A stretch of 64,000 nucleotides of DNA from a virus (lineage: Duplodnaviria; Heunggongvirae; Uroviricota; Caudoviricetes): the IMG/VR virus record IMGVR_UViG_3300008108_000006, one strand, 5' to 3'. Every line of letters starts with the position of its first letter. The stretch's first letter is position 1. Shown here piece by piece: positions 9,442-35,453 of this stretch. A program made the position numbers and the translations under genes. The notes below the pieces were generated by a model. That model made no database searches and was not told the DNA's origin. It worked only from the letters and a program-made list of their open reading frames with translations.

Positions 9442-9663
9442 ATGAAACTATACACAGAAGAACAAGTAAGAAAATTGCTTAAAAAAGCATTTTGGCAAGA
9501 TTTCTATGAGGGTGATACTGAGGAGAGCCTAATAAGTGAACTAACACCCATAGAACTACCAACGGATGAGGAGATAGAAGAAACATTAGGTGCAGCCGCA
9601 GGTGGATTATTTTGTAAGGGTGCTAAATGGATGAGAGATAAACTACAAGGAGGTAACAAATGA
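9442..9663 (+). CDS. Hypothetical protein
   Basis: ORF track 9391..9663. An internal ATG at 9442 is preceded by an aaggag SD-like element. Confidence 0.45.
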   Translation: MKLYTEEQVRKLLKKAFWQDFYEGDTEESLISELTPIELPTDEEIEETLGAAAGGLFCKGAKWMRDKLQGGNK

Positions 9664-9839
9664 GTAAGACATACGAATTAAAATTTACTATCACAATCAA
9701 AGATGAAATGAATGAAGAGTTCCAAGAACTAAAGAATACTATTTTATCAGGTGAACTACAAAGACAGATGTTTGATAACTCAGATAAAAATAAATTTGGG
9801 ATTACCAAACTAACAGCAACCTTAACTGAAAAGAAATGA
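9660..9839 (+). CDS. Small hypothetical protein (59 aa, below the ORF-track cutoff)
   Basis: ATG 9660 is preceded by aggaggt 8 nt upstream and overlaps the upstream stop in ATGA fashion. Translation: MSKTYELKFTITIKDEMNEEFQELKNTILSGELQRQMFDNSDKNKFGITKLTATLTEKK. Confidence 0.4.
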   Translation: MSKTYELKFTITIKDEMNEEFQELKNTILSGELQRQMFDNSDKNKFGITKLTATLTEKK

Positions 9840-9882
9840 AAGAATTATTTTTATTACGTGGAATATCTATTTTGGGATTTAT

Positions 9883-10770
9883 TTAAGGGTTGTTTAACAT
9901 ATTATGATATCTATCAATAAACTTAATTAAGTTGTTATCCAATAACGTTATAATTTCTTGATTTGATAACCTATCAATATCAATTAACTTATATTTAAGA
10001 CCTCTTAAATTACAAAATTCAATAGCCGCACCCGTTTTTAATTTTATAAGAGGACTATCCCATAACTTCTTAGGTTTAATCTCAACCATATATCTATTAT
10101 TAACGATAAAATCGGCAGTATATGACCTCTCAATTAAATTATAGTCTAAATATCTTATAGTTAAATCTTTTGTTTCGGCACTTTCCCATTCTAAATTATA
10201 TCTTTCTATGACTTTAATCATATAAGTTAACTCTTTTAAACTTCTAAAATACCACCCTTTATACCAACCCGACCATCCATTTCCTGAACCTATTGGTGAT
10301 GGTTTACCAAACATATTATTTTTAGTACCAGAATTATTTATAGATTGAGTTTCTCTGTACTTTTTCATTTTTTCATCAGCGAGTTGTTTCCCATATCGTT
10401 CAACCCATACATCATAAAATGAACGACCAAACATAGGATTATTTTCACCCTTTGTTACCTCACTCATTTTTTTCCTAAACTCATCACTACGATAAACAGA
10501 CATGTCTCTATTTATAACAATTTTAATTTTTGTTTCTTCAGTGTGTTTTTTACCAAAGAACGGATTTAATTCGCCTTTCATACCAAACATAGGATTATTT
10601 CTACCCTCAACTCGATCTCTCATTTTTTCACGTCTTTCATCTGTGATTGATTCTTTTATTCCACAACTTTTACATTTACTTTTCTTTAGTTTCGCTTTTT
10701 GGTAGTTGTATTTGCTAGAATATGTAAGTTCTTTATTACACAATGGACAATTTCTAGTATATTTGCTCAT
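9883..10770 (-). CDS. Homing-endonuclease-like protein: N-terminal Cys-rich zinc finger, three NUMOD3-like repeats, C-terminal PD-(D/E)xK-like module
   Basis: CPLCNK ... CKSCG, then repeated NPMFG(K/M)...HTEETK(IK) units as in GIY-YIG/HNH homing-endonuclease DNA-binding regions. C-terminus: FIVNNRYMVEIKPKK. Confidence 0.5.
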   Translation of the reverse strand: MSKYTRNCPLCNKELTYSSKYNYQKAKLKKSKCKSCGIKESITDERREKMRDRVEGRNNPMFGMKGELNPFFGKKHTEETKIKIVINRDMSVYRSDEFRKKMSEVTKGENNPMFGRSFYDVWVERYGKQLADEKMKKYRETQSINNSGTKNNMFGKPSPIGSGNGWSGWYKGWYFRSLKELTYMIKVIERYNLEWESAETKDLTIRYLDYNLIERSYTADFIVNNRYMVEIKPKKLWDSPLIKLKTGAAIEFCNLRGLKYKLIDIDRLSNQEIITLLDNNLIKFIDRYHNMLNNP

Positions 10771-10843
10771 TAAAGTTTGTTTTTTGTTTTTTATTTAATT
10801 ATCTTTGTAGTCTAAACCAAGTAAACCCCTAACAATAAATAGT

Positions 10844-11278
10844 ATGGATATTAAAAAAAACACGAACCCCCCAGTAAAAGAGTTGATTCTCTTGAGGGGG
10901 GTTCCTTAGCCAGGAAGTGGTAAGTCAACATTAGCAAAAATGTTAGTTGGTGATAAAGATTATTGCCACAAAGAAGCGGATATGTATTTTGTGGATAGTG
11001 ATGGAAATTACAATTTCAAACCAAGTGAAATCAAAAACGCACACAAATGGTGCAAAGAAGAGATTGAGTTCGCAATGAAATACGAACATTCACCTGTTGT
11101 AGTATCAAACACATTTACCCAAGAATGGGAGATGGAAGATTATTACAAATTGGCGGAAACCTACGGATATAGAGTTCATTCGTTAATTGTGGAAAATCGT
11201 CACGGTGGAACAAATACCCACAATGTACCCCAAGATAAGTTAGATATTATGAAAAACAGGTTCGAGGTTAAACTATAA
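10844..11278 (+). CDS. Polynucleotide-kinase-like P-loop kinase (T4 Pnk kinase-domain-like) interrupted by an in-frame TAG at 10907-10909. It is either recoded (a hop) or a pseudogene.
   Basis: From ATG 10844 the frame reads MDIKKNTNPPVKELILLRGVP*PGSGKSTLAKMLVGDKDY. The Walker A GxxxxGKST is restored exactly if the CCU-UAG-CCA stretch is bypassed. The ORF track only calls 10940..11278. A TAtcTTTG box lies at 10800-10807. Confidence 0.45.
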
Positions 11279-11284
11279 ACAATT

Positions 11285-11878
11285 ATGGTAGATAATTTTG
11301 AAAGAATAATTGAGTTGTTGGAATTCCCATCTGAGGATACTTTTTATCACCTCCAAATATTGAAGAGGAAGAAAGAGAATCCTGATGTGGGATCCAACTC
11401 TTATTTGGTTAAAACGTATTACATCAAATCAAAGGAATATTTGGATAAGGTAGGTCCTGAGATTGTTTGTTTATGTGAATTCCATAATGCAAGAGCATAT
11501 ATCAATTTAACACCGAGAAGTTTTGAACAATTGGCGTTCCAACATTTGAAAAAAGTTACAGATCAAATCTTGAATAAGGATTATAAGTCAGCACATACCG
11601 CTTATAATTCAGTTTGTGGTGAATATGGTATTAAACCAAAGAGTTGGATTATTGATATTGACTTACCCGGTGATGAAGGACATAAGTTAGGTGATAAGAT
11701 AATGGATTTTATTGAATCTGAGTGTCAACCCTTCGGTGATACAAAGTATGTTGCGACGATTCCAACAAGAAACGGGTTTCACTTAATCACTCGACCATTT
11801 GATAAATCAAAGTTCAAAATTAAATTTCCTGATATAGATATTCATTGTAATAACCCCACAGTGTTATTTTCGCCATGA
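11285..11878 (+). CDS. Hypothetical protein
   Basis: ORF track, 197 aa. Confidence 0.5.
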   Translation: MVDNFERIIELLEFPSEDTFYHLQILKRKKENPDVGSNSYLVKTYYIKSKEYLDKVGPEIVCLCEFHNARAYINLTPRSFEQLAFQHLKKVTDQILNKDYKSAHTAYNSVCGEYGIKPKSWIIDIDLPGDEGHKLGDKIMDFIESECQPFGDTKYVATIPTRNGFHLITRPFDKSKFKIKFPDIDIHCNNPTVLFSP

Positions 11879-11894
11879 CCGTATATTTATTGGT

Positions 11895-12662
11895 ATGGAA
11901 TACAATGAATTTACCGAAGCGTCAGGAGATTTAGGTGGTAGAAGATTTAAGAAAGATACAACCAAAAGAACTCTTAATACTGCCATTTTTAATGGTGCTT
12001 ATTTAACAGATAGAATAAATAAATTATTCAGCAGTAGTGAAATTTCTGATGAAAAATCAAGAATCGCGAAAACTTACGAATTATATAAAGATAAAGGTTG
12101 GATTGGTTTAAATATTGGTAATCTCAAACAGAGAGATAAGATAATGAAAACACCATTACCTGATATCATCTCTAAATCATATAACATCTTACACGATCCT
12201 CGCGGTAATGGTAATAACTTAGAGTTTGAATACAACATCAGAAGTAAAGTTTTTGGTTTTTCCATTCGTGTTTTAATTGATATGGAAGCGAAACGATTCT
12301 TAATTGATGATGGTGAATTTTATTCTGAGTGTTTTCCAACACCATTAGATGAAGAAGGTGAGGTTATGGACGATCGTAACTCAATGTTTGAGGAAGGTGG
12401 GAAATCAACCGTTTCTTTTTCACCTGAACTATTAAATCTGATTGCTGCTTCATCAGGTGGTGGTAGAGTTAGTTCATTTATGAACGAACAAATCCACTAT
12501 GATGTTAGTGAATTGGTTATGAAATATTTGGTAAGAATGTTTGCAAAACAAATTGTAAAATGTGATGAGATCCAATCAAAATTCTCAAGAAAGAAAAACC
12601 CTTACAGTAAGTTAGATGAGGGTGTTTCCCGAATGTTACATTTAATTAAATTATTTGGTTAA
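11895..12662 (+). CDS. Hypothetical protein
   Basis: ORF track, 255 aa. Followed by a terminator at 12676-12703. Confidence 0.5.
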   Translation: MEYNEFTEASGDLGGRRFKKDTTKRTLNTAIFNGAYLTDRINKLFSSSEISDEKSRIAKTYELYKDKGWIGLNIGNLKQRDKIMKTPLPDIISKSYNILHDPRGNGNNLEFEYNIRSKVFGFSIRVLIDMEAKRFLIDDGEFYSECFPTPLDEEGEVMDDRNSMFEEGGKSTVSFSPELLNLIAASSGGGRVSSFMNEQIHYDVSELVMKYLVRMFAKQIVKCDEIQSKFSRKKNPYSKLDEGVSRMLHLIKLFG

Positions 12663-12730
12663 AAATTTTTAGAGAAGGTTTGGTTATTCCAAACCTTTTT
12701 TTTATCTTTGTGGAATATTAAACCAAAGAT

Positions 12731-13465
12731 ATGTTCAAGTTTTATGAGGTAGGCGGAAAAGTCAGAGATGAGATCTTGGAGATTGAGTCCAAAGACGTTG
12801 ATTATGTTGCGGTACCCGGTGAGGATTTATTGAAAGATGTGAATTCGGCACATTCTATGTTTAACATTCTTGAGGGGTACCTCAAAGAAGAGGGGTTTGA
12901 AATCTTCTTGGTGACATCGGATTGTTTCACAATTAGAGCGAAGTTTCCTCAAGGACACAAATATTCGGGTGTTGCAGATTTTGTTATGGCAAGAAAGGAA
13001 ATCGGATATATTCCCGGAACAAGGACACCACTTGTGGTTCCTGGAACATTATACGATGATTTGGAAAGACGGGATTTTACCTTAAATGCTCTAGCCAAAG
13101 ATGGTGATGGTAATATCATTGATTACTTCGGAGGTTTGGAACATTTAAGAAAAGGTTATCTTAAAACACCAATAGATTGCAAGATCACATTTGATGATGA
13201 TCCGTTGAGAATTTTAAGAGCGATCAGGTTTTGTATTACAAAAGGGTTTTTCATTTCACCTTATATGGATGGTGTTATGCAAGATTATGATTATGAAACC
13301 AAAATGCCCGTGGTGTCTGTTGAGAGAATCCGTGAGGAGTTGTATAAGTGTTTCAAACACGACACGATTAAGACACTCAAAACCTTACACGAGTTTCCTG
13401 CTCTTAGGAATTATATCTTCAAAGAGAACATTCTTTGGTTAAAACCAACATTAGAAACAAAATAA
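12731..13465 (+). CDS. tRNA nucleotidyltransferase (CCA-adding enzyme) / poly(A) polymerase head-domain protein
   Basis: VGGKVRDEILEIESKDVDYV is the GGxVRD head motif. RRDFTLNALA matches the RRDFTINA motif. A TAtcTTTG box lies at 12703-12710. Confidence 0.6.
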   Translation: MFKFYEVGGKVRDEILEIESKDVDYVAVPGEDLLKDVNSAHSMFNILEGYLKEEGFEIFLVTSDCFTIRAKFPQGHKYSGVADFVMARKEIGYIPGTRTPLVVPGTLYDDLERRDFTLNALAKDGDGNIIDYFGGLEHLRKGYLKTPIDCKITFDDDPLRILRAIRFCITKGFFISPYMDGVMQDYDYETKMPVVSVERIREELYKCFKHDTIKTLKTLHEFPALRNYIFKENILWLKPTLETK

Positions 13466-13476
13466 ATTATTTTTTT

Positions 13477-13869
13477 ATGACACTTTTGGAACAAATTCAA
13501 AAAACCACTCAATCTTGGATGGTGGAAAAAAATCCAAGAACGAACTTCTTAAAAACCGTTATCGGTGAGTTACAACGATTACCATCCAAAAATCCAACGG
13601 ATGCTGAGGTAATCTCTGTATTGACCAAAATGATTAATGGTGTTAAGGAATACCCTACAGAAACTTCTCAAATGGAATTGGAAGTTTATGAAATGTTCGT
13701 TCCTAAATCATTAACCGAATCTGAGTTAAATAAAATCTTGGTGGAAATGGTTTCAAAATATCCTAACAAATCGGATATGAAAACCATTATGGGTGAGATG
13801 AAATCAAACTATGCCGGACAATACGACGGTAAAGAGGTATCAATGTTTCTTCAACAAAACTTAAAATAA
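13477..13869 (+). CDS. GatB/YqeY-domain protein
   Basis: MTLLEQIQKTTQSWMVEKNPRTNFLKTVIGELQRL resembles YqeY-family N-termini. ORF track 13435..13869, trimmed to ATG 13477. Confidence 0.45.
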   Translation: MTLLEQIQKTTQSWMVEKNPRTNFLKTVIGELQRLPSKNPTDAEVISVLTKMINGVKEYPTETSQMELEVYEMFVPKSLTESELNKILVEMVSKYPNKSDMKTIMGEMKSNYAGQYDGKEVSMFLQQNLK

Positions 13870-14352: not shown

Positions 14353-17300
14353 TTGATTATGTCAAATCCTTTTTTTATTATTGATAGTATGGAAAAACTT
14401 GATTTAAAAAATCTACCCTTAACCGATGGTAAGTTTATTTATCTAGCATCGGTGGATAGTGAGGCACAAAAAGGTTATTACAAAATTGGTTTAACTAAAA
14501 ACATGCACAGTAGAAGTAAAACATCAAAAAGTGCATTCTCAATTGATGATCCTTATTTTATTGACTCCATTGACATTTCAAAATTAACAGACAAACCTCT
14601 TCATGTTGTGGAGGGGGAAGTTCATGATATTCTAACAAAGTTAGGTTACCTCGTAAAAAACGGAAAGGAGTGGTTTATGTTAGTTGGTGATCCTATTAAG
14701 ATCTTCAGAAACGTTCTAAGTATAGTATTAAACAATACGGATTCCTTTAAGAAAATATTATCGTTATTACCCCATCAAAAAGAAGCGTCAAAATTTATCA
14801 ATGAAAGATTCGATTCCGATGATAAGAAATGTTTGATATTCCACAAATGTAGAAGTGGGAAAACATTCATAACAGGAAAACACATCCAAGAAAACAGATA
14901 CGATAATGTATTGTTTGTAACCAATCAACCAACGGTTAATTACCAATGGATTGGATTCTTTGATACTCATCAAGGATTCATGGATTATAGTATTATAGAT
15001 AAAGAAAATATTTCTGAAGTGGATTTTGAATTAAATGAAAAGAGAATTATTTTCTTATCATTACAGGATATTAAAGGTGGGGATGAAGTTTTTGGTAAAG
15101 ATAAATTCAAGAATCTTATACATACTAAAATCGATCTACTTATCATCGATGAGTGTCATCACGGTGTTGAAACGGAAAAAACCACCGAGTTTTTGACAAA
15201 AGTTAATTATGAGAGATTATTAGGTCTATCCGCAACACCGAGTAAGAACCTTTTAGTTGGGAGATTCGCTAAGGAACATACTCATATTTACGGATTGTCA
15301 GATGAAAAGAAGATGAAATTACAATTTCCCGATCAATACCCTTATGCCGATATAAACTTCTTATTGTGGAATCTTTCTAAAAATGAGAAATCTAACTTAA
15401 AGTATTTTTCAGATGAGGAACAATTCAAATTTGATAAGTTTTTCCGAATTGAGAATGGTAATTTTTATTATCAATCGGATATTGAATTTCTGTTCAAAAG
15501 ATTAATTGGTGACCGTTCGGTTTGTGGTCGTGATAAGTTGGGTACAAAATACCCATTAAAAAATCAAGGAGATTTCTCTGATGTTAGATCGGTTCTTTTA
15601 TTTGTCCCTAATATTTCAGTACAAGAAAAATTAAAAGAACTTTTACTGAACAATGAATATTATAAAGATTTTGATATCCACATAACAAATAGTGAGATTA
15701 ACTCTTCAAAAATGTTAATCAATAAAGTTAGAGGAGAATTCACTTCAAAAAGTAAGAGAAGTTTAATCATTGCCGTTGACCAATTAACGATGGGTATCAC
15801 ATTGGAAGATTGTGATATGGTGATGATGATGAATGATTGGTTGTCAATGGACAAATACATTCAAGCATCATTCAGATGTCAATCACCTAGAGAAGGTAAA
15901 GAAAAATGTTGGGTTGTTGATTTTAATGCTGCAAGATCGTTTGAAATGATGGGTGAATATCAAACCATTATTTCAAAATATACCGGCAACGAATTAAAAG
16001 ATCAAATTAAAGAGTGGGTGGAATGTGTTAATATCTATAACCGAATTGATGGTGAGTTCATACCTGTCGATGTTAATACGTTCTTTACCGAATACCTAAA
16101 TACCATAAGCAAACGAATAAGGTTTGATTATCAAAATACGATTAATTTTGATAAATTAACTGATGATGATATTTCTAAATCCTTGTTAAGTTTCGGTTTA
16201 AAAGATGGAACATCATCTTCTGAAACAAAACTTAATGATGATGGGATCGATAAGGGTAAGAGTAAGATCACTAAAAACCTATCACCATCAAATAAAGATA
16301 AACCTTCCGAGATTGATATTAATAAACTTATTGAGATTGCAAAAGCATTGTTGGATAAGACGATGCTTCTGACAATATTCAATAGATTTGAGCATGACGA
16401 TATTGATAAAAATTTTGAAGTTATTTCTAACCATCCTGAACAAAAACAAGCGTATTTAGACACATTATTATTGGGTATTAATGATGCGGAAAATGTTGAT
16501 TTAGACACTATTAAGTATATTTATGATAACGTTTTTGATAAGGATAACATCAATAAAAAACTATTCGAGTTCAATAGAAAAGTGATATTTATATTTGATA
16601 ATATGAGGAAAAATCCTAATATTATAAATATGATGTTACCCGAAGTATTAAAATTGATTGATAGTTATTTAAAACCTTCTAATACCGAGAAAAGGTTGTT
16701 AGGTGAGGTGTTCACACCATTATACGGAAAGCCAGGTTGTGTGGAAGACCAATTAAATTTGATGGAGGATTCTTTTTGGAAAAGAAAAGATGTTAAGGTT
16801 TTAGACCCATGTGCGGGAATTGGAAATTACTCTGTTGTTTTAATTGATAAATTCATGAATGGATTATCTGACGAAATACCGGACTCAGAGGAACGATTAA
16901 AATGGATATTAGAAGAAATCATATGTGTTAATGAATATCAAAGTAAAAACCTATTCATATATCTACAATTATTCGATCCTGAAAACAAATACAAAATGAA
17001 CTTCTACAGGGGTGATTATTTGACATTAAATATTAAAGAAACCTTTGGGGTTGAGAAATTTGATTTGATTTGTATGAATAGTCCTTATCAGGAAGAATTA
17101 AAAACTAAACGAGGCTCGGCTAAACCTCTTTATAATCTTTTCATTGAAAAGGCTATAAAGGATTCTAAAAGGGTTATCTCAATTAACCCAAGTAGATGGT
17201 TTGCTGGTGGTAAAGGATTGGATAATTTTAGAAACATGATGCTTTCAAATAAAAACTTAAAAGAAATCTGTCATATAGAAGACCCAACTTTGGTTTTTGG

Positions 17301-18024
17301 TAATGGTGTTGAAATAAAGGGTGGTATTTCATATTCTTTAATTGATGAAGAATATAATGGAAATTGTGTGTTCAATGGTAATTTAGTTGATTTATCTAAA
17401 TTTGATATAATTGTGAATCCAAAATACTATTCAATATTGAGTAAATTATCAGGAAGAGTTGGATTAGATACAATTTGTAAAGGACAATCATATTCTGGGA
17501 TAAAAACAAACGATAATAGATTATCAAAAGTTAAAGTTGATGATTCTTATATCAAATGTTATGTTAGTCAAGTAAATGGATTAGAAAAATGGATTAAAAG
17601 AACTGATGTTAAAAAATCCGTTGATTTAAGTAAATGGAAAGTAGTAACTGCAGAAGCATCCGGTTCCAATAAAATGTTGGGTAAATTTGGTAATTCATTT
17701 ATAGGATATCCAAATGAAGTTTGTAATCAGAGTTATGATGTTTTTGAAGTTAATAATGAAACAGAAGCTAAATCTTTACTTTCTTATATTTCCACAAAAT
17801 TTGCTAATTGTTTATTATCATTAAGGAAAATATCACAACATATTAAACCAGACACTTGTAAGTGGATCCCAATGGTTCCCTTTGATAGAGAATGGACTGA
17901 TGAACAACTGTTCGATTATTTTAATTTAACTGATGAGGAACGAAACCTTGTCATGACATATGACAAAAAGGATAAACCTAAGTTAAATGTCGAGGTGGTA
18001 AATGAACTTACAACAGTATTATGA
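14353..18024 (+). CDS. Large fusion protein: N-terminal T5orf172/GIY-YIG-like domain, SF2 (Res/DEAD-like) helicase, C-terminal gamma-class N6-adenine DNA methyltransferase
   Basis: KFIYLASVDSEAQKGYYKIGLTKN...R...EGEVHDIL...GKEWF is GIY-YIG/T5orf172-like. CRSGKTF is helicase motif I. LLIIDECHHG is motif II (DExH). VLDPCAGIGNY is MTase motif I. DLICMNSPYQ is motif IV (an NPPY variant). Confidence 0.6.
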   Translation: MIMSNPFFIIDSMEKLDLKNLPLTDGKFIYLASVDSEAQKGYYKIGLTKNMHSRSKTSKSAFSIDDPYFIDSIDISKLTDKPLHVVEGEVHDILTKLGYLVKNGKEWFMLVGDPIKIFRNVLSIVLNNTDSFKKILSLLPHQKEASKFINERFDSDDKKCLIFHKCRSGKTFITGKHIQENRYDNVLFVTNQPTVNYQWIGFFDTHQGFMDYSIIDKENISEVDFELNEKRIIFLSLQDIKGGDEVFGKDKFKNLIHTKIDLLIIDECHHGVETEKTTEFLTKVNYERLLGLSATPSKNLLVGRFAKEHTHIYGLSDEKKMKLQFPDQYPYADINFLLWNLSKNEKSNLKYFSDEEQFKFDKFFRIENGNFYYQSDIEFLFKRLIGDRSVCGRDKLGTKYPLKNQGDFSDVRSVLLFVPNISVQEKLKELLLNNEYYKDFDIHITNSEINSSKMLINKVRGEFTSKSKRSLIIAVDQLTMGITLEDCDMVMMMNDWLSMDKYIQASFRCQSPREGKEKCWVVDFNAARSFEMMGEYQTIISKYTGNELKDQIKEWVECVNIYNRIDGEFIPVDVNTFFTEYLNTISKRIRFDYQNTINFDKLTDDDISKSLLSFGLKDGTSSSETKLNDDGIDKGKSKITKNLSPSNKDKPSEIDINKLIEIAKALLDKTMLLTIFNRFEHDDIDKNFEVISNHPEQKQAYLDTLLLGINDAENVDLDTIKYIYDNVFDKDNINKKLFEFNRKVIFIFDNMRKNPNIINMMLPEVLKLIDSYLKPSNTEKRLLGEVFTPLYGKPGCVEDQLNLMEDSFWKRKDVKVLDPCAGIGNYSVVLIDKFMNGLSDEIPDSEERLKWILEEIICVNEYQSKNLFIYLQLFDPENKYKMNFYRGDYLTLNIKETFGVEKFDLICMNSPYQEELKTKRGSAKPLYNLFIEKAIKDSKRVISINPSRWFAGGKGLDNFRNMMLSNKNLKEICHIEDPTLVFGNGVEIKGGISYSLIDEEYNGNCVFNGNLVDLSKFDIIVNPKYYSILSKLSGRVGLDTICKGQSYSGIKTNDNRLSKVKVDDSYIKCYVSQVNGLEKWIKRTDVKKSVDLSKWKVVTAEASGSNKMLGKFGNSFIGYPNEVCNQSYDVFEVNNETEAKSLLSYISTKFANCLLSLRKISQHIKPDTCKWIPMVPFDREWTDEQLFDYFNLTDEERNLVMTYDKKDKPKLNVEVVNELTTVL

Positions 18025-18289: not shown

Positions 18290-19342
18290 ATGAACACAAC
18301 TCTACAATCTTATTTGGACAATGGGTTACTTTATAATCAAGTACATCCAACTTTAGACCTTACCATATGGAATTATACCGAGAAGGTGCAGTATGACGGA
18401 CTTTTTGATGACGTAACTCTACAAACTCGAGGTTTGGTTACCAACTCTAATGGTGATGTGGTTGCGAGACCATTCCGTAAGTTCTTCAACATTGAGGAAG
18501 GAAGACATACCGCAACCCCTGACTTTGAAGTTTATGAAAAAATGGATGGTAGTTTAATCATCGCATTCATTTATCAAAGTGAGTGGGTGTTATGTACTCG
18601 TGGTTCATTCACCTCTGATCAAGCAATTGCTGCAACCAAATACTTCTTTGAAAATAATTTGGATAAGGTATTTGAGGGTGGAAGAAACACTTACTTGTTT
18701 GAATATATCGCACCTTGGAACAGGATCGTTGTTGATTACGGTGAAGAACGTTTGGTTTTACTTGGAATTGTTGATACCGAAACCGGTGATGAGTTTTCTT
18801 TGGATACCTTACGTTCCGATGAATTCCAAGAATATGTTGGTCCGTTGGATGTTGTTAAGAAGTATGATGGTATCACCGATTATTCTTTATTGAAGGGAAT
18901 GGTTAAGGATGATGCTGAGGGTTTTGTGGTTAAGTTCTCCAATGGTGACCGAATGAAGGTTAAAGGTGTTGAGTATATCAGGTTACATAAGGTTATGACC
19001 GGATTATCCACCACTTCAGTATGGGAATGTTTATCCAAAGGTGATGACATAATGACCATCCTTAAAGATGTTCCTGATGAGTTCTACAAGAAAGTTGACG
19101 TATATGTAAATCAATTAAAGAATGATTATAATGACATTTATGATACTTGTTTAAGTCATTACGTTACTTTCAGATATGGTAAAAATGGTGAAAAAACATC
19201 CGAACCCACAAGAAGGGAATATGTTGATTATGTGTTGCAAAGACCAAGACCACTTCAAGGGGTTCTATTCAATATGTGGGATGGAAAAGCCTATGACCAT
19301 ATCATATGGAAGATGATCAAACCAACTTTTATGAAATTATGA
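18290..19342 (+). CDS. ATP-dependent RNA ligase (T4 Rnl1-like)
   Basis: YEKMDGSLIIAF carries nucleotidyltransferase motif I K-x-D-G-S-L, as in T4 RnlA (KEDGSL). A TAccTTTG box lies at 18277-18284. Confidence 0.55.
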   Translation: MNTTLQSYLDNGLLYNQVHPTLDLTIWNYTEKVQYDGLFDDVTLQTRGLVTNSNGDVVARPFRKFFNIEEGRHTATPDFEVYEKMDGSLIIAFIYQSEWVLCTRGSFTSDQAIAATKYFFENNLDKVFEGGRNTYLFEYIAPWNRIVVDYGEERLVLLGIVDTETGDEFSLDTLRSDEFQEYVGPLDVVKKYDGITDYSLLKGMVKDDAEGFVVKFSNGDRMKVKGVEYIRLHKVMTGLSTTSVWECLSKGDDIMTILKDVPDEFYKKVDVYVNQLKNDYNDIYDTCLSHYVTFRYGKNGEKTSEPTRREYVDYVLQRPRPLQGVLFNMWDGKAYDHIIWKMIKPTFMKL

Positions 19343-33929: not shown

Positions 33930-35453
33930 ATGATAAATCCATTTTTATTAGCAGATGGGTACAAGGTTGGTCACCACCAACAGTATCCAAAAGGAACAAC
34001 ATTAGTTTATTCCAATTTTACACCAAGAAGTAACAAACACGCACCGAAAGGGTGTAACGAAGTTGTTGTGTTTGGAACACAAATGGTGATGAAACAAATT
34101 CACGAAATGTTTGATTTAGGTTTTTTCAAACGACCAAAATCGGAAGTTTGTGATGAAATCCAACGAGAACTTACGATGTATTTGGGAACAGATTACGACA
34201 CATCACACATCGAAGCATTACACGACTTGGGTTATTTACCAATTCACGTTAAAACCTTAGCCGAAGGAACATTGGCACCGATTAAAGTTCCGGTATTAAC
34301 AATTTACAATACTGTTCCTGAATTTTATTGGATTACAAACTTTTTGGAGACCATTTTATCCAACTTGTTATGGAAACCTATGACCTCGGCAACTATCGCC
34401 AGACAATACCGAAAAGTTTTGAATGGATGGATGGAAAAAACGGATCCATCAAATGCTTGGTTTGTTGATTGGCAAGGGCACGACTTCTCAATGAGGGGGA
34501 TGGATTCTGTAGAAGCGGTTATCGCATCAGGTCTTGGTCACTTAACATCATTTTCAGGTTCAGATTCTCTTCCTACAATTTATGGAGCACGTAAATACTA
34601 CAACGAAACTGATTTTGTTTGTGGTTCTGTTCCCGCAACCGAACACTCGGTAATGTGTGCCGGTGGGAAAGAAGATGAGGTGGATACATTCCGTAGATTA
34701 CTTGAGACATATCCAAAAGGTATTTTATCAGTAGTATCGGACACTTGGGACTTATGGAAAGTCTGTACCGAACACGTGGTAACATTGAAAGAAGAAATCT
34801 TGGCTCGTGATGGTAAGTTGGTTATTCGTCCTGACTCTGGAGATCCTGTTGATATTCTTTGTGGTAAAGGAATTTACCAAGCCGGCGATAGATTATTAAC
34901 TAATGACGAAATTGATGAAGACGTATATGCCCCAGAGTTCAAAGGTGTTATCGAATTACTTTGGGATGTATTTGGTGGCACAATAAATGAGCAAGGTTAT
35001 AAAGTTCTTGACCCCCACATCGGAGCAATTTATGGTGATAGTATTACCATTGAACGTGCTGATGAAATCTGTCGTAGATTAGAATCAAAAGGTTTCGCAT
35101 CAACAAATGTGGTTCTTGGTATTGGTTCATTCACTTACCAATACAATACCCGTGATACATTTGGATTTGCAATGAAGGCAACTTATGTAGAGGTTAATAA
35201 ACCAAAATTCCCTGGTGATTTTAATCCTGAAGGTCGTGAAATCTTCAAGGACCCAATCACAGATGATGGAACCAAGAAATCCGCAACAGGGTTGTTATGT
35301 GTTGAAGAACACGATGGTAAAATTGGTTTATACGACAAGGTATCTTGGGCAACTGAGGCAGACGGACTTTTACTATCAATTTATGTTGATGGTGAGTTTA
35401 TCTATAGAACCACATTAACCGAAGTCAGGAATAAGGTTAAAGAGAGTTTGTGA
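33930..35453 (+). CDS. Nicotinamide phosphoribosyltransferase family protein (NadV/NAMPT or the Namat enzyme of NARP1)
   Basis: N-terminus MINPFLLADGYKVGHHQQYP is the hallmark NAMPT start. Length 507 aa. A TAacTTTG box lies at 33904-33911. Confidence 0.65.
   Translation: MINPFLLADGYKVGHHQQYPKGTTLVYSNFTPRSNKHAPKGCNEVVVFGTQMVMKQIHEMFDLGFFKRPKSEVCDEIQRELTMYLGTDYDTSHIEALHDLGYLPIHVKTLAEGTLAPIKVPVLTIYNTVPEFYWITNFLETILSNLLWKPMTSATIARQYRKVLNGWMEKTDPSNAWFVDWQGHDFSMRGMDSVEAVIASGLGHLTSFSGSDSLPTIYGARKYYNETDFVCGSVPATEHSVMCAGGKEDEVDTFRRLLETYPKGILSVVSDTWDLWKVCTEHVVTLKEEILARDGKLVIRPDSGDPVDILCGKGIYQAGDRLLTNDEIDEDVYAPEFKGVIELLWDVFGGTINEQGYKVLDPHIGAIYGDSITIERADEICRRLESKGFASTNVVLGIGSFTYQYNTRDTFGFAMKATYVEVNKPKFPGDFNPEGREIFKDPITDDGTKKSATGLLCVEEHDGKIGLYDKVSWATEADGLLLSIYVDGEFIYRTTLTEVRNKVKESL

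Follow-up and report, generated by a model that had tools for sequence, protein, structure and literature searches.

The interrupted kinase gene

The 64,000-nucleotide (nt) stretch analysed here, from the Caudoviricetes record IMGVR_UViG_3300008108_000006 (hereafter, the window), carries a small P-loop kinase gene whose Walker A motif is split by an in-frame stop codon. On the plus strand, the reading frame opened by the ATG at 10844 encodes MDIKKNTNPPVKELILLRGVP*PGSGKSTLAK..., with the TAG inside the P-loop, and then remains open until the TAA at 11276-11278. Four successive codons define the interruption: CCT (Pro; 10904-10906), TAG (10907-10909), CCA (10910-10912), and GGA (from 10913), where the kinase body (GSGKSTLAK...FEVKL; 10913-11278) begins. 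The original prediction drew attention to this TAG and proposed that ribosomes hop over it. What it missed is that the six extra nt end a mobile homing-endonuclease cassette inserted in the gene, the TAG forming the cassette's 3' end. As set out below, the kinase is probably expressed through a programmed translational hop of 5-8 nt that would restore the sequence GVPGSGKST.

The arrangement described originally, an in-frame TAG between CCT and CCA with six nt in excess, is confirmed both by reading the frame and by DNA alignment with the closest relatives (loci L032, L033, and L034), which are shorter by exactly six nt. About 100 uninterrupted relatives likewise lack these six nt, and the interruption recurs in about 37 distinct alleles on IMG/VR contigs, distributed over five families of AAA_33 kinases (families 1 to 5). 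A mechanical open reading frame (ORF) call starts instead at the ATG at 10940 and gives, as foreseen, a 112-amino-acid (aa) kinase without a P-loop. This truncated product is on record for many contigs: gene callers cut such kinases to P-loop-less fragments, and the window allele is recorded in that form in the protein collection.

Joined to one another, leader and body make the canonical 132-aa kinase plus an N-terminal extension, as they do in all of the kinase alleles listed. The Pfam family is AAA_33: the product of a hop, with its canonical Walker A motif, scores 49.9 bits, and the product of readthrough 41.2 bits. The closest homologues (thousands exist) are uninterrupted 132-aa proteins that start MKELFLLRGLPGSGKST, one of which, P0001, is 97% identical. 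The original description as Pnk-like holds at the level of an AAA_33 P-loop kinase, but not as identity with T4-type polynucleotide kinase (Pnk). The window protein is a lone 132-aa AAA_33 domain, without the C-terminal HAD phosphatase domain of T4-type Pnk; its PDB matches reach the P-loop level only, and a PHROG match to "polynucleotide kinase" is secondary.

The interruption is reproducible. Across six independent assemblies (JGI 3300031857 and 3300027816; ENA ERZ27247994 and ERZ27247984; NCBI GCA_031546225.1 and GCA_031546345.1), the endonuclease gene, leader, TAG, and kinase show 0 differences over 1440 nt, or, for L230, over the 876 nt available before its contig ends. Other alleles, one with a frame-shifted gap among them, are identical across four samples each, and no single-nucleotide polymorphism occurs within any allele group. 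An identical allele in six assemblies, together with recurrence in about 37 alleles, means that the interruption is neither chance nor error.

The inserted element

The kinase ORF is split exactly at its P-loop proline codon by an inserted element of about 1.04 kb (about 9867-10909). On its left lies an orphaned remnant of the original kinase 5' end (9836-9886, plus strand), encoding MKELFLLRGI (ATG AAA GAA TTA TTT TTA TTA CGT GGA ATA), with homology to uninterrupted kinases until 9866. The remnant frame translates as MKELFLLRGISILGFI*, its stop coming soon after the homology ends, just before the P-loop proline codon. Positions 9836-9866 are identical to L033 as far as that codon, and 9660-9868 is 93.8% identical to L033 8340-8548, a segment that covers the first 33 nt of the L033 kinase. 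The remnant marks the element's left junction, probably near the break site. A motif search aimed at eight other endonuclease-bearing loci found no remnant of the old 5' end in those checked. Among the loci checked, such a pre-insertion remnant left of the endonuclease is seen in the window lineage only, which suggests that there the left junction was made at the break itself, in a recent event.

On the right, positions 10910-12700 are 99.7% identical (blastn) to L032, which is without the element. All kinase mismatches with L032 fall in 10871-10936, and the two genes are identical from 10937; positions 10913-10936 fall within the co-converted tract. A second pair, L025 and L046, shows 92-100% identity over endonuclease, leader, and gap, and about 80% from roughly 30 nt 3' of the stop, a drop that matches the boundary between the window and L032. 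Presence/absence polymorphism is seen between the window and L032, and a sharp co-conversion boundary in both pairs. L032 comes from the same ENA sample series, so element-free and element-bearing alleles appear to coexist.

The element contains a homing-endonuclease-like gene on the minus strand (9883-10770; 295 aa), which sits between a small upstream gene and the kinase. Its product combines three NUMOD3 motifs (60.7 bits; cut-off 20.4) with a TnsA-like nuclease domain of the restriction-endonuclease fold, the latter matching Tn7_TnsA-like_N at 24.5 bits, slightly below the 26.5-bit cut-off. PHROG annotates it as "endonuclease", and no homologue was found among solved structures. The gene is missing from this site in L032 and L033, in which the small upstream gene overlaps the kinase ATG. 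Among the loci collected, every homologue of the window enzyme (40-56% aa identity) lies no more than 400 nt from an interrupted P-loop; both orientations occur, and the neighbouring kinases belong to families 1, 2, and 5. In L038, the position directly upstream of the interrupted kinase is occupied not by the TnsA-like type but by a GIY-YIG plus NUMOD3 endonuclease (1289-2008). No endonuclease was detected near about 15 alleles, a few of which lie at loci with short upstream flanks; these alleles still have their leader ORF, hairpin, and stop, and their bodies are intact.

A spacer (10771-10843) separates the leader from the divergent endonuclease gene and presumably carries the start signals of both. 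Directly 5' of the leader ATG stands ACAATAAATAGT, which is conserved in distant cassettes (compare L025, ACAATAAATATT ATG). The replacement leader ORF itself (10844-10906, plus strand; 21 codons) re-encodes strand β-1 and the start of the P-loop. It adds an N-terminal extension of about 10 codons, and this extension houses the 5' arm of an RNA hairpin.

Recurrence across kinase families

Interrupted alleles were collected by three kinds of search: a protein-guided scan, motif scans, and an unbiased harvest of family-1 kinases through their conserved NTFTQEWEM motif. The pattern scans required TAR (R, purine), so that TGA is under-counted; it is the stop in three of the eight unbiased cases. 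The harvest returned 98 canonical genes, one variant of canonical length (L168, RGVCGAGK), and 8 interrupted genes, with no instance of a sense codon in place of the stop. For a wider metagenome scan, the pattern for interrupted alleles is CCN-stop-N(2-8)-GGNNNNGGNAAR beside a hairpin.

The alleles share one anatomy: a CCN codon; then TAA, TAG, or TGA; then a YYN triplet (Y, pyrimidine); then GGN and the rest of the Walker A motif. The stop follows CCN directly in every allele. The take-off codon is CCG in 23, CCT in 15, and CCA in 2 of the 40 rows listed, and the proposed landing triplets in the same rows are CTA (14), CCA (12), CCT (5), CTT (3), TTA (2), TCA (2), and CTG (1); the remaining row (L199), with GCC and hence a purine in the landing triplet, is a chance non-kinase hit. 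A narrower "YYA" landing rule was an artefact of the first search pattern, and relaxed scans gave YYN. Every kinase body not cut by a locus end is full length. The distance from the initiating methionine to the P-loop proline is 20-23 codons in interrupted family-1 genes; canonical genes mostly have 11-12.

In five alleles the gap measures 2, 4, or 5 nt, which puts the leader and body in different frames: CCT TGA G CTA GGT in L059; CCA TAA A TCA GGT in L206; CCG TAA TA CCA GGA in the L079 group (identical in four samples); CCG TAA TA CCT GGA in the diverged allele L221; and CCG TGA CA GGA, with five extra nt, in L104 (around 4685, on the minus strand of the locus). Each has a leader with its ATG and hairpin, and a body that is intact in the frame of the triplet preceding GGN. 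The proposed landing triplet directly precedes the resume codon in all gap-length variants, L104 possibly excepted. The extra indels of the five alleles are confined to the few-nt gap, with none elsewhere in these genes of about 400 nt. Because leader and body differ in frame, readthrough cannot make kinase from these alleles. The two parts would be joined only if the P-site tRNA jumped from CCN onto the pre-GGN triplet, over 5, 7, or 8 nt rather than 6.

One of the five families is represented by a true T4-type polynucleotide kinase/phosphatase orthologue, the gene around 889 in L194, with the same hairpin and a CCT TAA CTT gap. Its alignment with structure 1LTQ begins at query residue 12, so that the extension corresponds to the 11 residues preceding T4 Pnk residue 1. 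The cassette therefore reaches classical Pnk genes. L044 (around 3548), L172, L177, and L181 encode a kinase with a C-terminal motif that is HD-like by eye, and have CCT TAG CCA/CCT at the same P-loop position. This kinase has no 5' hairpin (-8.4 kcal/mol), a 12-aa leader without extension, and no endonuclease nearby; it may represent a less-stimulated hop or a dead gene.

A hairpin at the take-off codon

Upstream of the stop, the leader RNA can form a hairpin (10864-10904, plus strand) composed of an outer stem, 10864-10872 (GAACCCCCC) with 10896-10904 (GGGGGGUUC), and an inner stem, 10878-10882 with 10889-10893. At its 3' end the hairpin takes in the first base of the take-off codon. The fold has a free energy of -23.2 kcal/mol (z = -3.6), reached by 0 of 200 shuffled sequences. 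All alleles of families 1, 2, 4, and 5 form an equivalent structure, in which the R-G-[V/L] codons are base-paired with a C-rich stretch some 30 nt upstream; the stem is GC-rich, comprises 8-10 base pairs, and ends within 0-1 nt of the take-off codon. Arm sequences differ: AACCCCCC / GGGGGGTT in the window; AGCCCTCG / CGAGGGCT in L024; GAGCCCCCT / AGGGGGCTC in L079; CACTCCCC / GGGGAGTG in L088; and CCCCTCTCA / TGAGAGGGG in family 2.

The hairpin distinguishes interrupted from canonical alleles. In the family-1 and family-2 alleles first measured, the 52 nt before the take-off codon fold with -17 to -25 kcal/mol; alleles measured later, over a slightly different window of sequence, gave -18 to -30 kcal/mol. 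The corresponding values for 117 canonical alleles are -3.3 ± 2.3 kcal/mol, with a minimum of -9.7, and the hairpin is absent. A first covariance model found matches in interrupted loci only, among 79 sources.

Covariation supports the structure as well. Over 13 distinct sense-strand sequences, 95.3% of the alignment cells are paired, and compensatory changes occur in 8 of 15 pairs. Covariation scores 0.34, versus 0.12 ± 0.02 in shuffled alignments, of which 0 of 500 reach 0.34; sliding the hairpin partners lowers pairing to 44-67%. Loop lengths differ, and these values come from a covariance-model alignment that was fitted to the structure, the independent control being the contrast with canonical alleles.

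Two features of the interrupted alleles are explained by the hairpin. One is the N-terminal extension, since it houses the 5' arm. The other is the P-loop glycine codon, which in canonical genes is GGA (72), GGT (34), GGG (8), or GGC (6) and which switches to GGG in interrupted alleles; this codon belongs to the 3' arm. The run of six G residues in that arm lies at 10896-10901, one position to the right of where it was first placed (10895-10900).

A Shine-Dalgarno (SD) type of stimulator is unlikely in the window, because SD motifs are depleted 5' of its genes (2 of 72, versus a background of 7.5%). The G run was considered as an SD-like element, by analogy with prfB (AGGGGG-UAU-CUU-UGA), and this idea was dropped: the run is the covarying 3' arm of the hairpin, and SD motifs are depleted. 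A small take-off hairpin across the gap (GGUU...AACC) was also considered, and proved inconsistent across alleles by eye.

A probable short translational hop

These observations suggest a model that starts from the contents of the cassette: the endonuclease gene, a replacement for the 5' end of the kinase (start codon, extension of about 10 codons, β-1, and proline codon), and a short coding gap. The gap (the stop plus one triplet) and the recoded leader would destroy endonuclease recognition of the conserved P-loop DNA. That DNA is the presumed endonuclease target, and it is interrupted by the gap, so an invaded genome would no longer be cut. Both the target and the self-immunity are suggested by the left junction at the proline codon and by the insertion in the target.

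During translation, peptidyl-tRNA-Pro would occupy CCU in the P site with the stop codon, slow to decode, in the A site, and peptide release would be slow. A C-terminal proline makes for poor termination. The apical part of the hairpin would by then be outside the ribosome, with the GC-rich 3' arm (positions -9 to -1) still inside; refolding of the hairpin to complete the stem would pull the mRNA forward. In this way the hairpin would stimulate the hop by driving forward mRNA slippage. The tRNA would re-pair 6 nt downstream, on CCA, in the window, and at 5-8 nt in other alleles. Landing on YYN would be cognate in the window and compatible through G-U pairs elsewhere. Re-pairing from CUU to UUU in prfB frameshifting is a possible precedent for imperfect landing. 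Decoding would resume at GGA to give ...LLRGVPGSGKST..., the canonical Walker A motif.

We infer the hop, its efficiency, the role of the hairpin, and tRNA re-pairing from comparative evidence: the use of three different stops, the frame-shifted gaps, and the covarying hairpin. This evidence favours a hop, the central reading of the original prediction, over readthrough, pseudogene, and artefact. We also lean, somewhat less firmly, towards a broader interpretation: that this is the first natural programmed short-range "stop-hop", driven by a hairpin and tolerant of G-U landing, and that it lets homing endonucleases enter the Walker A coding sequence of phage RNA-repair-type kinases, in at least five families, without destroying the kinases.

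Alternative explanations

The most serious rival supposes that a selfish cassette homes into the P-loops of dispensable kinases and leaves the kinase dead. Leader, hairpin, and stop would then serve the element itself (through target-site immunity, regulation, or termination of translation), and the bodies would be intact because the insertions are recent. Several observations favour this explanation and count against a hop. That the cassettes move is clear, and insertion in the window happened recently. If the kinase is dispensable, as it may be, a gene-killing selfish element could spread. The leader is more similar than the kinase body in every pair of alleles compared, and alleles are identical within groups; accordingly, the low ratio of nonsynonymous to synonymous substitution (dN/dS) in the bodies of interrupted alleles (0.05-0.3) could predate each insertion. 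Since cassettes move between diverged kinases, dN/dS was set aside as an uninformative test of selection after insertion. Family 3 has CCT-TAG-CCN but no hairpin, no extension, and no endonuclease. Other difficulties for a hop concern landing. Matched proline codons, on which the original prediction relied, do flank the stop in the window (CCT/CCA), but a CCN-cognate landing triplet is present in just 17 of about 37 alleles, and CTA is the most frequent. Landing elsewhere than on CCN would need G-U pairs at codon positions 1 and 2, or a landing site set in some other way, and the YYN pattern could have arisen by C-to-T drift from CCN. L104 would have to land on ACA; in this allele ACA overlaps the stop, and hairpin, endonuclease, and intact body are all present. 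Finally, unstimulated stop-hops in synthetic constructs are described as low-level. Against a dead kinase stand the age and constancy of the cassette. Its endonucleases have diverged to 40-56% identity, yet the ATG and an open leader of 20-23 codons are always kept. Gene killing would require neither a leader that preserves β-1 and R-G-[VL]-P through many synonymous changes, nor a stop right after the proline with the pre-GGN register always maintained. The extra indels in five alleles all fall inside the gap; changes from stop to stop are seen, and from stop to sense none; alleles without a detected endonuclease are still fully intact. On balance we consider a dead kinase unlikely.

The remaining explanations, which carry still less weight than a dead kinase, leave the gene functional by other means or deny the interruption. 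Readthrough by a near-cognate or suppressor tRNA would insert two residues (GVPXPGSGKST). Leader and body do share a frame in most alleles, and a proline codon before the stop and a C after it are both poor termination contexts. But TAA, TAG, and TGA are used interchangeably; no tRNA gene was found in the window, where TAA and TGA serve as normal stops; five alleles have leader and body in different frames; and the product would carry an added Pro, Leu, or Ser in the Walker A loop, with the lower AAA_33 score given above. The hairpin, moreover, is 5' of the stop, unlike the readthrough stimulators known to us. Readthrough is thus improbable. More doubtful again is removal at the RNA level, with 5-8 nt excised from the mRNA and the ends religated, for example by phage RNA-repair enzymes. 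The kinase does lie within a cluster with RNA ligase and tRNA nucleotidyltransferase, and a strong hairpin adjoins the gap; however, the interrupted gene is itself the kinase that such a pathway would need, a proline codon, in-frame stop, and pyrimidine-rich pre-GGN triplet are translational rather than cleavage signals, and no system known to us cuts 5-8 nt out of bacterial mRNA. Reassignment of TAG, or of stops generally, to sense throughout the genome is scarcely credible. Recoded phages exist, and TAG is rare among window stops (63 TAA, 26 TGA, and 4 TAG in 93 ORFs). Against this, the standard code already gives dense ORFs, which lengthen little when TAG is read as sense, no tRNA gene, suppressor or other, was found in the 64-kb window, relatives use TAA or TGA at this position, and TAA is the main stop; recoding was rejected on these grounds. 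As for a sequencing or assembly artefact, the G6 homopolymer lies 5 nt upstream of the stop, but six identical assemblies from three sources and the same architecture in about 37 diverged alleles refute it, leaving it a negligible prospect. The original prediction would have counted uninterrupted relatives, together with reads showing the insertion at low frequency only, as a sign of artefact. Such relatives exist, and they reflect presence or absence of a mobile element; as a test for artefact the comparison is invalid.

Relation to known bypassing systems

Programmed translational bypassing is among the rarest recoding events, the secure cases being T4 gene 60 with its homologues and the mitochondria of one yeast. 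The T4 gene 60 bypass reportedly comes with a MobA homing-endonuclease cassette (Bonocora et al. 2011). The kinase cassette resembles this system in several ways. In each, one mobile cassette unites a free-standing homing endonuclease with a non-coding insert that lies in a conserved gene; both have a take-off codon followed by a stop, a stem-loop on the 5' side of that codon, and extra N-terminal coding sequence. In both, the insert disrupts the endonuclease target, as demonstrated experimentally for T4 and as we would expect for the kinase cassette. Among gene 60 cassettes, too, are forms that lack the endonuclease and retain the bypass, and forms with another type of endonuclease (GIY-YIG); the L038 endonuclease parallels these reported swaps. 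The gene 60/MobA insert protects against self-cleavage (Manning & Atkins 2022, bioRxiv 10.1101/2022.08.31.505936; Wills et al. 2024, bioRxiv 10.1101/2024.12.09.627546).

The differences are equally clear. The gap is 2-5 nt in the kinase cassette, against 50 nt in T4 gene 60, and so leaves no room for a stem-loop at the take-off and A sites, an internal SD, or a forward barrier. In the kinase cassette the hairpin sits right against the take-off codon, whereas in gene 60 it is 9 nt upstream. The take-off tRNA is that for Pro rather than Gly, and landing in the kinase cassette is often non-cognate. The target is the P-loop of RNA-repair-type kinases instead of a topoisomerase, and the endonuclease is of the NUMOD3 plus TnsA-like type instead of MobA. 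(T4 MobA is an HNH-type enzyme.) With gene, gap length, codons, and endonuclease domains all different, the kinase cassette is an analogue, not a homologue, of the gene 60 cassette. Similarity in sequence between the two was not noted either, although they were not compared directly. A forward pull on the mRNA has been proposed for the 5' and extended stem-loops of gene 60. Bypassing like that of gene 60 was unreported in other phages (Manning & Atkins 2022, 10.1101/2022.08.31.505936).

The nearest match in geometry is artificial. In synthetic "stop-hops" constructed in Escherichia coli, a stop stands between matched codons (Weiss et al. 1987; O'Connor et al. 1989; reviewed in PMC5009743). A single amino acid is then encoded by nine nt, and the peptidyl-tRNA pairs again 6 nt further downstream; CCU-UAG-CCA in the window has exactly this geometry. 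The synthetic cases are artificial and unstimulated, whereas the kinase cassette is natural and conserved, has its own hairpin, and allows displacements of 5-8 nt. According to a 2016 review of recoding, in-frame stop-hops were known from synthetic constructs only, with no natural case, and shorter natural counterparts of bypassing had long been presumed (PMC5009743).

The mitochondrial "byp" elements of Magnusiomyces capitatus are likewise mobile inserts in protein-coding genes that are bypassed in translation. Their take-off and landing sites are not always perfectly matched, and two-out-of-three pairing has been proposed. They are GC-cluster-like inserts of 27-55 nt that lack an endonuclease and place an unused sense codon in the A site; the kinase cassette, by comparison, belongs to bacteria and their phages, presents a stop codon, and has a far shorter gap.

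The mobility of the cassette resembles the intronless homing of T4 Seg and Mob enzymes. In that process, an endonuclease gene beside the target gene, presence/absence polymorphism, a co-conversion tract, and a cleavage-resistant variant of the target occur together, and resistance normally comes from silent substitutions. In the kinase cassette, by contrast, resistance would come from an insertion in an invariant protein motif, one that needs translational correction.

The cassette and its endonuclease were not found in cultured GenBank phages by megablast and blastn of the region or tblastn of the endonuclease. Kinase homologues from cultured phages are below 60% identical, and the matches listed start at query residue 5-14, as those of uninterrupted genes do; these matches were not inspected for the gap. 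Nor did a literature search find any report of a stop or a hop in the P-loop of phage kinases.

If these kinases do rely on a hop, they add an independent second example of a bypassable insert carried along with a homing endonuclease, and such an example supports the idea that bypassing evolves as a cost-avoidance device of selfish DNA. If this is true, translational bypass is a recurrent strategy of mobile elements and not a T4 oddity. The cassette also offers dozens of natural variants in stop codon, gap length, landing triplet, hairpin sequence, and hairpin presence, through which three questions can be tested: what drives take-off, how far the mRNA slides, and how strict landing is.

Neighbouring genes

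The neighbourhood of the window kinase is of RNA-repair type, with genes at 12731-13465, 13435-13869, 18290-19342, and 33930-35453: a tRNA nucleotidyltransferase (PF01743), a YqeY-like protein, a T4 Rnl1-type RNA ligase (PF09511), and, further on, a nicotinamide phosphoribosyltransferase. Between them, at 14353-18024, the window encodes a 1223-aa fusion of T5orf172, a ResIII/helicase region, and an Eco57I-like methylase. In L033, a syntenic contig, a 173-aa ORF and an N6_N4 methyltransferase take its place, and this difference in content marks a variable island. Gene starts in the window are A-rich at positions -15 to -3 and depleted of SD cores. Such starts resemble translation initiation of the Bacteroidota type, a hint as to the host.

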